This document shows positions 15,505 through 19,498 of a stretch of 64,000 nucleotides of DNA, piece by piece. The notes under the pieces are model-generated. The model did not search any database, was not told the DNA's origin, and was given only the letters and a program-made list of their open reading frames with translations. Each line of letters opens with the position of its first letter. Position 1 is the stretch's first letter. The stretch is from an uncultured archaeon (GTDB lineage Archaea; Thermoplasmatota; Thermoplasmata; Thermoplasmatales; Thermoplasmataceae), in NCBI GenBank assembly GCA_000965745.1, contig CP009479.1, positions 1,216,001 through 1,280,000 on the forward strand. The letters are read 5' to 3'. Both the position numbers and the translations under genes were made by a program.

Positions 15505-16125
15505 TCAGACCTTTATCAGCTTGAGTGCATACGAGGTGAACGGGTCAAGTATCAGCTCTCCATTTGCAGTCTCAACAGTCACATCACCGTCGTTAAGCAA
15601 TTCCACTGAAGCTCCAGGGAAAGCCGACACTGAGGACATCTCTCTCAGCAGCTTCCTGTCCTCGAAAGATACCCTGTTCAGTGTGTATTTGCCTGGCTCA
15701 GCGAGTGATGCCGAAACCTCCTTCTTTCTTTCGGATGGGTTTACGGGATTTCCGTGAGGGCATGTCTCCGGCCTGCCAATATTCTTGAAGAGCTTCTCTC
15801 CCTTATCCCCGTGGAAAAGGTGCTCCAGCTCCATGACAGATGAATGCGAGTCCTCCCATGGTATTTCCAGGAACTTGTATGCGAATACCTCAACTATCCT
15901 GTGTTCCCTGACCATTGGCATCACTTTCCTGTATCCCCTGGAAGTGAAGTTAACATCCCTCCCCCTCTTGACGAGCAGCCCGTCATCCACGAGCTTTGAC
16001 ACGTATTCTGAGGCGGTGGGAGCAGAAATCTTGAGCCTTCTGGCTATGTCTTTTTCCGAGACCCTTCCTATGGTCTCTATAAACTCCCATGTAACCAGCA
16101 GGTAATCTTCTTTATTATTGGCCAT
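15505..16125 (-). CDS. DtxR/MntR-family metal-dependent regulator
   Basis: EDYL, HTH IARRLKISAPTASE, REHRIVE, ELEH, CPHGNP, FeoA-like tail. Confidence 0.9.
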   Translation of the reverse strand: MANNKEDYLLVTWEFIETIGRVSEKDIARRLKISAPTASEYVSKLVDDGLLVKRGRDVNFTSRGYRKVMPMVREHRIVEVFAYKFLEIPWEDSHSSVMELEHLFHGDKGEKLFKNIGRPETCPHGNPVNPSERKKEVSASLAEPGKYTLNRVSFEDRKLLREMSSVSAFPGASVELLNDGDVTVETANGELILDPFTSYALKLIKV

Positions 16126-16272
16126 TAACGGCTTTAAATAGGGTTTTTATAGTTAAACATTTCCCATCATTCCGATGCAGATCACACCATGGATATACTC
16201 CGTGACATGGGCCAGCTCATTCAAGCCCGGTTAACTCATCACGATTTAATACTTCAAGTCGATATTCTTTTC

Positions 16273-16980
16273 ATGGAGATTGTATTTCTCGGAAACTGGT
16301 CGGCAAGACTTGCTCCCGGGAAAGTAAACACATCATTCGTGATAGACGGGAAGATTGCCTGTGACTTCGGACCTGGCTCTCTTCAGTCCATGATTGAGAA
16401 GGGCCTTGACCCCAACGGCCTGGAACAGGTGCTCATATCCCACATGCATTATGATCACTTCGCGGGATTGACGGGCCTGCTCTGGTACAGGGCCATGTCC
16501 GGTACTGAGGAAGAGTTGCTGATAACCGGCCCCGATGGCATTGAGAAAACATCAAAAGACTTGCTGGAATCATATCGGACGCCTCATGGCTTTCACATCT
16601 ACGCCTCATTCGAGAAAAAATCAAATGATGACATCCAAATCATCTCTGGAGACCACACAATCCCCAACAATGGTTACAGGATACACTACAACGGCAGGAC
16701 GGTATTCTATACAGGCGACACTGCTTTCAGCGAATTGATTGTAAAAGGGGCTGAGAACGTTGATCTTCTTATTCATGAAATGACCTACACTGACGATCTG
16801 AGAATAGAAGCAGAACTGTGGAGGCACTCAACGGTTTCGGATGTAATGTCTACATTCACCGAAAGCAGTGCCAAAAGGCTTGTCCCTGTCCATCTTACCG
16901 CTGAAACCCTTAAGGCGATCCCGGCACTACAGAGAAAGAACGACCAGCTCTTCCTCCCTGAGGGCAGCATACTCCTGTAA
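16273..16980 (+). CDS. Metallo-beta-lactamase-fold hydrolase (RNase Z-like)
   Basis: SHMHYDH, YTGDT, LLIHE, HST, PVHL; start moved to ATG 16273. Confidence 0.8.
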   Translation: MEIVFLGNWSARLAPGKVNTSFVIDGKIACDFGPGSLQSMIEKGLDPNGLEQVLISHMHYDHFAGLTGLLWYRAMSGTEEELLITGPDGIEKTSKDLLESYRTPHGFHIYASFEKKSNDDIQIISGDHTIPNNGYRIHYNGRTVFYTGDTAFSELIVKGAENVDLLIHEMTYTDDLRIEAELWRHSTVSDVMSTFTESSAKRLVPVHLTAETLKAIPALQRKNDQLFLPEGSILL

Positions 16981-17110
16981 GCCCGAAGCATGGGGCCCAT
17001 GGAAAACAGATCAACGGAAAAGAGTACAAGTGCCTGTTTTTCCAAGCACATCGTCACAACGGTTAAATACTACGAAAGTATACATGCTTGATAATGTCAC
17101 GCCTGCCTAA

Positions 17111-17126
17111 CAGAAAAAGTATAATT
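17111..17126 (+). promoter_or_regulatory. Putative BRE/TATA promoter for the leader-aromatic operon
   Basis: CAGAAAAAG-TATAATT about 30 nt upstream of the leader ATG at 17154. Confidence 0.55.
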
Positions 17127-17153
17127 GCAGTTGAAGGGCCTTCCAGGGCTCAA

Positions 17154-17234
17154 ATGAATTTGGAACCAAATGCAGTTATAAGGTCTGAATTTTTTGGCAG
17201 TGATGTTTTCTATTATCGTTTTGCACCTTTCTAA
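17154..17234 (+). CDS. Putative Phe/Tyr-rich leader peptide MNLEPNAVIRSEFFGSDVFYYRFAPF
   Basis: Hand-translated 26-codon ORF; 5 Phe and 2 Tyr in the last 14 codons; stop 15 nt before the chorismate mutase ATG. Confidence 0.7.
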   Translation: MNLEPNAVIRSEFFGSDVFYYRFAPF

Positions 17235-17249
17235 GGGAGCTGAATTAAT

Positions 17250-17867
17250 ATGGGTTCTCAGAGGAAACTTATAGGCAACAGTGAGGAGATTTCGTCTCTG
17301 CTCTCCATGCGGGATGAGCTTTTCAGGAATACACTACAGATTATAGATCTGGTCAGGGAAAGGATCAAGCTTGCGGCAGAGATAGGAAAGGAGAAGGACA
17401 TGCTCGGCATGTCACCGAGGAACAGGCAAAGGGAACTCGAGGTCCTGAACAGCATACCAGAACTTGGTGAGATTGAGAAATCAGTTCTGAACATGATTTT
17501 TGAGCTTACAATTCTCAATGAGGTAAGCCAGAGGCCCGAAGTATCAGTTCCTGAATCCCATGGGGAAAATGGCGGCAGCATAGTGCTTTCAGGCCCGGAC
17601 GGGCTTCTTGCATATTCAATGGGGCTCATTGTCTCTTTTCCGGGATTTGAGCTGAAGGATACTGCGGGGATCCCTGAAAATCTCGCATTGGGGGTTGTTC
17701 AGAGGGGTGGCCATATAACAGCTGAAAAAGAGGGCGGAAACTCAGGAAAAATAACCCTTGTGAATTCAGAGGGAACTGTTATGGCAACTCTTGATAACGG
17801 GATACTGAAGATCTGTCCTGAATTATTCTCAAAAAACTCAAAGAATGAAATAATGGAGGCGGTATAA
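17250..17867 (+). CDS. Chorismate mutase (AroQ) with unassigned C-terminal extension
   Basis: IIDLVRERIKLAAEIGKEK...RNRQRELEVL; GGGAG SD; operon context. Confidence 0.82.
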   Translation: MGSQRKLIGNSEEISSLLSMRDELFRNTLQIIDLVRERIKLAAEIGKEKDMLGMSPRNRQRELEVLNSIPELGEIEKSVLNMIFELTILNEVSQRPEVSVPESHGENGGSIVLSGPDGLLAYSMGLIVSFPGFELKDTAGIPENLALGVVQRGGHITAEKEGGNSGKITLVNSEGTVMATLDNGILKICPELFSKNSKNEIMEAV

Positions 17868-18527
17868 ATTAAAGTCTCAATAATTGGTTCCAGGGGAAGG
17901 ATAGGCTCCACTATCAGGGAAAAGCTTGAAGGAAACGGGCATGAAATAATATGTTCAGTCGACAGGAATGATACAATAGACACTGCAAAACTGAGGTCTT
18001 CCGATGTGACAGTCCTGGCTGTCCCGCTTGAGGATGCAATATTGCTCATCGAGAAATACAGGCATGAAATCGCCATCGTTGAACTTTCCTCCGTGAAATC
18101 TCCCATGAAGCGATTCTCCGGTGAAGTGGTAAGCCTGCATCCACTGTTTGGCCCTGCTTCATCGAAGAATCCGGATTTCAACACAATCCTGTTTGTTAAT
18201 GACATTTCGCCTGACGGATCGCTCCAGAAGGTCCGGGAACTCTTTGCCGACAGCAACATTGCCAGTGTAACCGCAGAGGAGCATGACAGGGCCATGGCTG
18301 ACCTGCTGGTTGCACCATACGCAGTATCGATGATTGCAAAGAGGATAGTGGCATCAAACCAGAAATTTGTCACCCCCTCGTTTGCAAATCTCCAGAAAAT
18401 AGCATCAATTCTGGACGGGGAAAACTCTTCAGTTGTCAGGGACACAATATCGAAGAACGAGTTTTCACGTTCAGTGCTGGAGCAGATCAACAATGAGATT
18501 ATGGAAATAAGGAGTGGGTTGAATTGA
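17868..18527 (+). CDS. tyrA: Prephenate/arogenate dehydrogenase; apparent ATT start
   Basis: Upstream extension gives KVSIIGSRGRIG (Rossmann motif); LAVP, SSVK, SLHPLFGP, EEHDRAMA. Confidence 0.85.
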   Translation: MKVSIIGSRGRIGSTIREKLEGNGHEIICSVDRNDTIDTAKLRSSDVTVLAVPLEDAILLIEKYRHEIAIVELSSVKSPMKRFSGEVVSLHPLFGPASSKNPDFNTILFVNDISPDGSLQKVRELFADSNIASVTAEEHDRAMADLLVAPYAVSMIAKRIVASNQKFVTPSFANLQKIASILDGENSSVVRDTISKNEFSRSVLEQINNEIMEIRSGLN

Positions 18528-19498
18528 TCATTATTCCTAAATCCTCCGTGTACGAGGAAGCGCTGAAGGACAACATGATGGACTCCACGTTCAGCTACAG
18601 GGTGATAGACCTCTACGGAAGAAAGATAATCCTTACTGAAGGGCAGACCCCTTCGAGCCTTCCCATGGATAGCGACACTGCATTGCTTGTCAACGGAAAC
18701 CTTTACTCAAAGGAATTCAAGCAGGAAAAGACAGTAGTACAGGTTGATAATGTAAGCATAGGGGAGAAAAAGCTGATAATTGCAGCCGGTCCCTGCGCCG
18801 TGGAATCTGAAGGCCAGGTTATGGAGACGGCAGAGGCAGTAAAGAAGATGGGTGCTGACATGCTCAGGGGCGGCGCATTCAAGCCCAGGACCAGCCCTTA
18901 CTCGTTCCAGGGCCTTGGGCCGAAGGGGATACAGCTTCTAATGAAGGCGAGAGAAGAAACTGGCCTGCCGGTAGTCAGCGAGCTTCTTGACATTTCAGAT
19001 TTCAGTGCCTTCCGGAACAATGTTGACATGATCCAGGTCGGGGCAAGAAACGCGCAGAACTTCACTCTCCTGAAGTTCCTGGGGCAGCTCAAAACGCCCG
19101 TTCTCCTTAAGAACGGCCTTGCTACGACCATGAACGAATGGCTTGGATCAAGTGAATACATACTCTCTGGCGGCAATGAGAATGTTGTAATGTGCTACAG
19201 GGGAAACAGGAGCTTCGAGAATTATACCAGGTTCAATATGGATATCGGCTCGATAGCTTCTCTGAAAAACCTGACACATCTTCCTATATGCGCGGACCCA
19301 AGCCATCCCGCCGGAAGGAGGGAACTCGTGGAATCACTGGCACTGGGAGCAGTTGCGTCAGGCGCAGATATGCTTGAGGTTGAGGTCCACAGAGACCCTG
19401 ACAATGCACTTTCAGACTCGTCGCAGCAGCTTACTCTGGAGATGTTCAACAGGCTTATGAAGAACGTCAGGAAGGTAGAAGAGATAGTGAGAGGGTAG
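18524..19498 (+). CDS. aroF: DAHP synthase type I-beta
   Basis: AAGPCAVES, RGGAFKPRTSPYSFQGLG, QVGARNAQNF, DPSH; TTG start overlapping tyrA stop. Confidence 0.94.
   Translation: MIIIPKSSVYEEALKDNMMDSTFSYRVIDLYGRKIILTEGQTPSSLPMDSDTALLVNGNLYSKEFKQEKTVVQVDNVSIGEKKLIIAAGPCAVESEGQVMETAEAVKKMGADMLRGGAFKPRTSPYSFQGLGPKGIQLLMKAREETGLPVVSELLDISDFSAFRNNVDMIQVGARNAQNFTLLKFLGQLKTPVLLKNGLATTMNEWLGSSEYILSGGNENVVMCYRGNRSFENYTRFNMDIGSIASLKNLTHLPICADPSHPAGRRELVESLALGAVASGADMLEVEVHRDPDNALSDSSQQLTLEMFNRLMKNVRKVEEIVRG

Follow-up and report, generated by a model that had tools for sequence, protein, structure and literature searches.

A conserved Phe/Tyr-rich leader reading frame upstream of a chorismate mutase operon in Thermoplasmataceae, a candidate ribosome-read attenuator in Archaea

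The locus described here lies in the genome of an uncultured, acid-loving archaeon of the family Thermoplasmataceae (GenBank assembly GCA_000965745.1, contig CP009479.1), which is represented by a single contig of 2.23 Mb with a G+C content of 46% and whose nearest relatives are metagenome-assembled genomes labelled Thermoplasmataceae archaeon. We analysed a stretch of 64,000 nucleotides (contig positions 1,216,001 to 1,280,000; hereafter, the window), and all features of the window are given in its own coordinates and on the plus strand, unless indicated otherwise. The element in question is a short open reading frame (ORF), referred to below as the leader, which consists of 46 codons plus TAA (17094–17234) and has counterparts at the same position in five relatives; its frame is open from 17088, with an ATG at 17094 and the stop codon at 17232–17234. 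The leader precedes three genes of Phe/Tyr biosynthesis, encoding chorismate mutase (205 aa, 17250–17867), prephenate dehydrogenase (219 aa, apparent ATT start, 17868–18527) and DAHP synthase (324 aa, the last gene of the operon, 18524–19498). These identities, proposed in a first-pass annotation made from the sequence alone, are supported by profile matches: chorismate mutase to Pfam CM_2 and to PRK06443, a Thermoplasma-type NCBIfam model spanning residues 19–195 at a score below the model's cut-off; prephenate dehydrogenase to NCBIfam PRK06444 (5e-51, below the curated cut-off); and DAHP synthase to Pfam DAHP_synth_1 (2e-68) and NCBIfam PRK08673 (above the cut-off).

Orthologues of the chorismate mutase were found in the genomes of three species of the same genus (66%, 44% and 38% identity), and the protein also matched six metagenome-derived proteins (59–66% and 43% identity); a metagenome scan with the chorismate mutase protein as the query gave no match. 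The window, the three same-genus genomes and two of the six metagenome-derived loci provide six distinct upstream regions, across which the chorismate mutases are 38–66% identical. The leader ORF is present in all six, with counterparts at L002:2129–2269 (minus strand, 46 codons), L019:1330–1485 (plus, 51 codons), L021:1327–1485 (plus, 52 codons), L003:2090–2218 (minus, 42 codons) and L004:2120–2248 (minus, 42 codons). It invariably starts at the same ATG and terminates at the same place, 13–16 nt upstream of the chorismate mutase ATG. Although the leaders range from 42 to 52 codons, every length difference is a multiple of three, and the other two frames of the region are interrupted by stop codons in 11 of the 12 cases. 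When the leader interior was shuffled, the probability of an open frame was 0.08–0.26 per genome, with a six-genome product of about 1e-5, assuming independence. The 26-residue peptide reported in the first-pass annotation (ATG 17154 to TAA 17232–17234) agrees with our translation, but its proposed start has to be revised, given that ATG 17154 is an internal Met without a counterpart in any relative, the conserved start being ATG 17094.

The conservation of the ORF, along with the prediction of a 46-aa gene at the leader position by the gene caller on one further contig, could indicate a functional, trans-acting small protein of 42–52 residues, whose targets might be, e.g., the enzymes of the pathway. 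However, about 30 codons in the middle of the leader cannot be aligned across genomes and its length varies, so that only the first three residues and the C-terminal tail are kept; furthermore, a search of the protein collection with the 46-aa peptide revealed no homologue. We therefore consider a trans-acting protein highly improbable.

The conserved C-terminal part is an aromatic tail (17190–17231), in which seven of the 14 codons specify Phe or Tyr; as annotated originally, all seven aromatic residues of the peptide fall within these last 14 codons. In the five relatives, the tail contains 7, 7, 6, 6 and 4 aromatic residues, so that in the six genomes combined Phe, Tyr and Trp account for 37 of the 84 tail codons (44%) compared to 9 of the 195 other leader codons (4.6%). 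All six peptides end in Y-x-F-x-x-F-stop, the invariant residues corresponding, in the window, to Tyr at codon −6 (17214–17216), Phe at −4 (17220–17222) and Phe at −1 (17229–17231), counted from the stop. Among the 6499 stop-terminated intergenic frames of at least 20 codons in the host genome, 10 (0.15%) contain at least seven Phe, Tyr or Trp codons in the last 14, and hence, taken alone, an aromatic-tailed frame is unusual but not significant genome-wide. What lifts the leader above chance is its location before a Phe/Tyr operon together with its recurrence in five other genomes. The reservation, raised originally, that AT-rich DNA can produce Phe and Tyr codons fortuitously is thus countered by the shared position and the aromatic counts in the relatives. 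Overall, the central proposal of the first-pass annotation, that this Phe/Tyr-rich leader is an operon sensor read by the ribosome, gains support from the kept open frame, the frame-preserving indels and the confinement of the enrichment to the tail, and the search for such an upstream ORF (uORF) ahead of orthologous operons was positive in five relatives, all from one genus-level clade. The choice of codons in the tail is biased as well. Tyr is encoded by TAT in 13 of 14 cases, whereas the host genome prefers TAC (TAT usage, 43%), and the Phe codon at −4 is TTT in five of the six genomes, compared to a genomic TTT usage of 38%. Such preference for minor codons is expected of a sensor of decoding speed, but a requirement for U-rich RNA could also yield this bias.

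Two other biosynthetic genes of the host are preceded by ORFs of similar character. The gene ilvB follows a 24-codon, leaderless-looking ORF that ends in a run of Ile, Val and Leu codons (G000:C1:304280–304400; L025:81–200) and is kept in all three same-genus genomes (L027, L028 and L029, upstream of position 1501). Past the stop codon of the ilvB leader, there are a conserved hairpin, a T-run and GAGGTG; the last codons of this leader are the best pairing partner of its 5′ end in only two of four genomes. Directly upstream of leuA, there is a 22-codon Leu-rich ORF (G000:C1:1628148–1628216; L026); its 5′ untranslated region (UTR) contains a hairpin and a segment including a Shine-Dalgarno (SD) sequence that is complementary to the end of the ORF. 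The tail of the aromatic leader contains almost no Ile, Val or Leu, and the runs in the ilv and leu leaders contain neither Phe nor Tyr. Given that the host's ilv and leu leaders are each enriched in the products of their respective operons, the aromatic enrichment is operon-specific, and this tracking of the end product of each operon appears to be the strongest argument that these frames sense amino acids. By contrast, no cognate leader was found in the host genome for the trp operon or the prephenate dehydratase gene, and a blind genome-wide ranking of upstream frames rich in a single amino acid was too noisy to reveal additional leaders. Histidinol dehydrogenase (hisD, PF00815) was not found in the host genome, which is 99% complete, and the host may be a histidine auxotroph. 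Whether the genus-level clade operates a 'ribulon' of attenuators, comprising Phe/Tyr (this operon), Ile/Val/Leu (ilvB) and Leu (leuA) leaders, is in our view a question with the chances evenly balanced. The Phe/Tyr and ilv leaders look leaderless, whereas the leu leader possesses a 5′ UTR.

The promoter of the leader and the operon contains a TATA box, TTAAATA (17063–17069). In all six genomes, the first base of the TTWWATA motif is located exactly 31 nt upstream of the A of the conserved ATG. Genome-wide, the first base of TATA elements in the host peaks 27–30 nt before ATG starts that follow long upstream gaps, and a separate class of host genes has an SD at −9 to −14. Given the fixed spacing and this genome-wide peak, the mRNA is predicted to begin at ATG 17094 or 1–2 nt earlier, and accordingly to be leaderless or nearly so; a YA dinucleotide occupies positions −2/−1 relative to the leader ATG. 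The alternative promoter placed originally at ~17114–17127 (TATA-like element at ~17119–17125) is found only in the host and has no counterpart in the relatives. The predicted transcription start and the start codon are embedded in an 18-nt block, TGCTTGAYAATGWCWCGC (17086–17103), which is almost invariant in the six-genome alignment and is followed by about 90 nt that cannot be aligned. This block may additionally contain an initiator element or an operator. Scans of metagenome and genome collections with this conserved 18-mer as a DNA pattern yielded about 240 loci, with a chorismate mutase gene only in the three already-known relatives.

The 5′ end of the predicted transcript is complementary to the leader codons located directly 5′ of the aromatic tail. 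In the window, this helix, denoted P1, joins 17094–17107, which includes the start codon, with 17196–17206, corresponding to codons −12 to −9 (−11.2 kcal/mol). The individual duplex energies are no better than those of shuffled sequences when large loops are allowed, and P1 was therefore assessed by a positional test. The segment that best complements the first 20 nt ends 20–25 nt before the leader stop in each of the six genomes, and the minimum of the mean profile (−13.0 kcal/mol, against a null of −8.3 ± 0.8) was not reached in any of 5000 circular shifts; when the genomes were conservatively counted as about four independent lineages, p was near 0.003. Only two positions of the 5′ strand vary, and both change together with their partners (position 4, U-A to A-U; position 6, A-U to U-A), the partner sequences themselves differing among lineages. 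P1 is part of the full-length minimum free energy fold in five genomes, including that of the window.

A second potential helix, P2, links the end of the leader to the ribosome-binding site of chorismate mutase. As annotated originally, an SD, GGGAG (17235–17239), directly adjoins the leader stop, and the next ATG is at 17250; an (A)GRGG motif follows the leader stop at a distance of 0–1 nt in five of the six genomes, with a weaker CUGGG at this place in G002. The last leader codons can pair with this SD in a hairpin (17223–17240; local fold, −6.7 kcal/mol), and comparable local folds of −6.7 to −7.9 kcal/mol were obtained in five of the six genomes. Across the set, 85% of the P2 cells are paired, against 37–62% when the partner is slid, and in four of the six genomes, no upstream segment pairs with the SD better than the tail does (positional p about 0.03). 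RNAalifold, applied to the last 95 nt, produced a weak consensus (−3.6 kcal/mol) with no covariation and revealed no conserved alternative to the tail:SD hairpin; P1, the second conserved helix, does not compete with P2. Hence, the proposed hairpin recurs in four to five of the six genomes, but lacks compensatory covariation. A search of Rfam (cmscan, E up to 10) gave no match to Phe_leader or any other leader family, only sub-threshold hits to C/D-box snoRNAs. One of these, at 17192–17245 (18.5 bits compared to a gathering score of 46), was rejected as a chance match because the C-box-like GTGATG is missing from the relatives.

To model its effect on these structures, a stalled ribosome was represented as an unpaired stretch, −15 to +13 nt relative to the A-site codon. 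Opening of the SD costs 4.3–8.8 kcal/mol in the free RNA of the six genomes. With the A site at Phe −4, the cost drops to 1.4–3.5 kcal/mol in five genomes (6.5 in G003), and at Tyr −6, it is reduced in four of the six, to 3.2–5.1 kcal/mol; stalls at codons −14 to −8 cause no drop, and with the A site at Phe −1, the ribosome itself covers the SD. In the same model, the cost of opening the 5′ end falls for A-site positions −9 to −6 and is restored once the ribosome is at the stop codon. Accordingly, a ribosome waiting at the invariant Tyr and Phe codons would expose the SD and, at the same time, leave the 5′ AUG accessible.

The geometry of the tail can also be read in a different way. In a TnaC-like scheme, the C-terminal Y-x-F-x-x-F would act in the exit tunnel as an arrest peptide that senses free Phe/Tyr, with the bound amino acid causing a stall at the stop codon which covers the adjacent SD and represses the operon when Phe/Tyr is abundant. 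This scheme is compatible with the invariance of Tyr −6, Phe −4 and Phe −1, whose spacing from the stop is constant across six diverged genomes, and with the location of the leader stop, always 0–1 nt from the SD, such that stalling there would inevitably hide the SD; control would also operate in the right direction. However, the simple runs in which the enrichment continues further upstream (FF, FYY, FYYY) are characteristic of codon counting, the host's ilv and leu leaders are of the codon-run type, the invariant positions coincide with the nucleotide constraints imposed by P2 and by proximity to the SD, and no archaeal precedent was found. An arrest peptide of this kind thus appears distinctly improbable.

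The leader might, alternatively, govern premature termination at oligo-U tracts, either intrinsic or dependent on FttA/aCPSF1, rather than access to the SD. The T6 tract noted originally is indeed present at 17190–17195, and Phe codons do create such U tracts; in G001, G002 and L019, the hairpin is followed by a U5–U7 run located between the SD and the ATG, and in G001 the tail:SD hairpin with its U7 resembles a classical terminator; the ilv leader of the same genus also has a conserved hairpin and T-run past its stop. Nevertheless, the positions of the U-runs are not conserved, there is none after the hairpin in the window's genome, L021 or G003, no terminator-like site was found in 16900–17400, and no antiterminator alternative was detected. 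Moreover, a stall uncoupled from RNA polymerase would be expected to promote factor-dependent termination, contrary to the direction of control required. With differently placed U-runs in just three of the six genomes, the oligo-U alternative already considered in the first-pass annotation is disfavoured, and we regard transcriptional attenuation as rather improbable.

Palindromic sequences around related promoters raise a further alternative. In other genera of the family, a clear palindrome, either GATAGATATAnTCTATC or GCGTG..CACGC, is located between the TATA box and the chorismate mutase gene (L010, L014 and L016, ~1455–1495; L006, L007, L012, L013 and L017, ~1420–1470) and is probably an operator for some regulator; it is followed by a uORF of 10–25 codons that starts with M-(T/K)-R-S-G and overlaps the chorismate mutase start. 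In the host trp operon (trpB-A-D-F-E-G-C), the TATA box and the ATG are separated by a region with a perfect palindrome, AGCATTAATGCT (G000:C1:2202793–2202804), and the operon ends with a second DAHP synthase gene (259 aa, without the N-terminal extension; G000:C1:2208892–2209671). Because the trp operon, which combines a palindrome with the lack of a Trp leader, carries this second isozyme, the two DAHP synthases appear to be under separate controls. Conceivably, the leader is a non-sensing uORF, which happens to stand first on the leaderless transcript and is either not translated or else translated constitutively, serving in coupling or in the protection of the mRNA; its aromatic codons would then stem from a need for U-rich RNA, and control of the operon would fall to a transcription factor at the conserved block. 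The palindromes and very short uORFs of the other genera, the palindromic operator without a leader in the host trp operon and the U-richness of the tail are compatible with this possibility. By contrast, the frame-preserving indels and the open frame in six genomes argue for translation, the enrichment matches the end products of the operon, as in the ilv and leu leaders, and the minor-codon bias and the arrangement of P1 and P2 around the aromatic codons would be left unexplained. We hold a non-sensing uORF to be unlikely.

What is observed at this locus comprises the conserved ORF, the geometry of its promoter, the tail of aromatic codons, P1 and a stop codon directly adjoining the SD. We consider it probable, albeit with considerable room for doubt, that the leader is a Phe/Tyr sensor read by the ribosome, i.e. 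a leader-peptide attenuator that works mainly on translation. Under this model, the operon mRNA would begin within 2 nt of ATG 17094, and a ribosome would load on the 5′-terminal AUG and translate the 46-codon leader. With plentiful charged Phe- and Tyr-tRNA, the ribosome would reach the TAA at 17232 and depart, whereupon the 5′ end would pair with codons −12 to −9 in P1, which should block further leaderless initiation, and the last leader codons would pair with the SD in P2, so that initiation at chorismate mutase would stay low. Under a shortage of charged Tyr- or Phe-tRNA, the ribosome would pause with its A site on Tyr −6, Phe −4 or the preceding FYY run, and would thereby mask one strand of each helix (3′ in P1, 5′ in P2); the SD would then be single-stranded past the leading edge of the paused ribosome and the 5′ AUG would be free for the next one. 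A second ribosome could thus initiate at the SD, with ensuing translation of chorismate mutase, prephenate dehydrogenase and DAHP synthase. Translation of the leader, the stalling, and the direction and level of control (translation versus transcription) are what we infer in this scheme.

Several considerations weigh against this sensor model. All six sequences belong to one genus-level clade, and the uORFs in other genera of the family consist of just 10–25 codons with 1–3 aromatic codons. For the window's genome and G002, the predicted P1 is weak (opening costs of 0.8 and 1.2 kcal/mol, respectively). P2 is weak too, and the six-genome comparison revealed no compensatory change; in the window's genome and in G003, the tail is not the best partner of the SD, which pairs better with the first chorismate mutase codons or elsewhere, and RNAalifold also chose these codons. 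The direction of control could be the opposite if ribosomes reinitiate across the short gap between the leader stop and the next start, so that stalling would lower expression; in Haloferax, a stop-to-start gap of 13–14 nt still gives 40–60% termination-reinitiation (PMC10666635). Uncoupling of the ribosome from RNA polymerase during a stall would likewise favour factor-dependent termination. Finally, the conserved start block may be an operator, with a transcription factor providing the main control.

Some features of the adjacent genes deserve mention. The prephenate dehydrogenase lacks a canonical start, the Rossmann motif preceding the first canonical start codon. The chorismate mutase stop is TAA 17865–17867, and the same frame runs on from ATT 17868 into the Rossmann motif (17856–17870 region). 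The sequence just 5′ of ATT 17868 is GGAGGCGGT, and the same codon is GTG in L019 and L021, suggesting either an ATT start or else a recent change of the start codon. In two other genera, the chorismate mutase has no in-frame ATG, GTG or TTG before its conserved first helix (L011, ~1480–1500; L016, ~1498–1530), which suggests further non-canonical starts in the family. Upstream of the leader, the window contains a gene for a DtxR-type iron-dependent repressor (minus strand) and an RNase Z-like gene of the metallo-β-lactamase fold (15505–16980), and the order of these two genes is identical in all relatives with gene tables.

Leader-peptide attenuation is a textbook bacterial mechanism. Full-text literature searches retrieved no report of an archaeal leader-peptide attenuator, the control of archaeal amino acid operons being ascribed to transcription factors. 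If true, the clade-wide set of leaders would show that ribosome-mediated amino acid attenuation, thought to be bacterial, operates in Archaea, with the added twist that the 5′-terminal AUG would be sequestered in a helix except when a ribosome occupies the sensor codons, which would gate leaderless initiation. The locus offers a compact test case of ~160 nt, with a predicted leaderless start, sensor codons at Tyr −6 and Phe −4 and two helices that yield mutational predictions. Should the model be confirmed, archaeal ribosomes would read amino acid supply in cis, leaderless initiation would be tied to regulation through sequestration of the 5′ end, and the separate control of the DAHP synthase isozymes of the Phe/Tyr branch and the trp operon would be explained.

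Among the known systems, several bear comparison with the leader. The enterobacterial pheL-pheA attenuator belongs, with trpL, hisL, leuL and ilvL, to the class in which stalling within a leader rich in cognate codons is read as starvation, and it resembles the archaeal leader in being a short ORF rich in codons for the end product and located directly 5′ of a chorismate mutase gene. However, no terminator hairpin with a U-run is present in the window and no 2:3 antiterminator was found (in the six-genome set, a hairpin followed by a U5–U7 run occurs only in G001, G002 and L019), the regulatory codons lie at the very end of the ORF beside the SD, the start is predicted to be leaderless, and there is no Rfam match. 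Archaeal RNA polymerase terminates without the need for hairpins. The translational attenuators of cat and ermC share the principle that a ribosome stalled in the leader masks the 5′ arm of an SD-hiding hairpin (cited in 10.1101/834739), although these systems respond to an antibiotic that acts together with the nascent peptide rather than to the supply of charged tRNA.

The closest known system appears, by analogy, to be the mycobacterial attenuator with a polycysteine-encoding, leaderless short ORF (sORF), Ms5788A, for which translational attenuation has been shown experimentally (bioRxiv 10.1101/834739). In both systems, the first cistron of a biosynthetic operon is a leaderless sORF (predicted here) with a tract of cognate codons at its 3′ end, and the proposed relief depends on a ribosome waiting for charged tRNA. 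Pairing of this tract with the downstream SD is predicted for the mycobacterial sORF (10.1101/834739) and, as the best upstream option, for four of the six archaeal genomes, among which that of the window is not included. The differences are several: the mycobacterial system involves a bacterium and Cys, whereas here it is an archaeon and, putatively, Phe/Tyr; the spacer is 97 nt in the former, whereas here the stop abuts the SD, with 13–16 nt to the start; and the very stable SD duplex there contrasts with the short, weak SD hairpin here, which is complemented by an additional predicted helix that sequesters the 5′-terminal AUG. Overall, the leader seems to work most like this class of leaderless sORFs with SD sequestration, the terminator that defines classical attenuators being missing.

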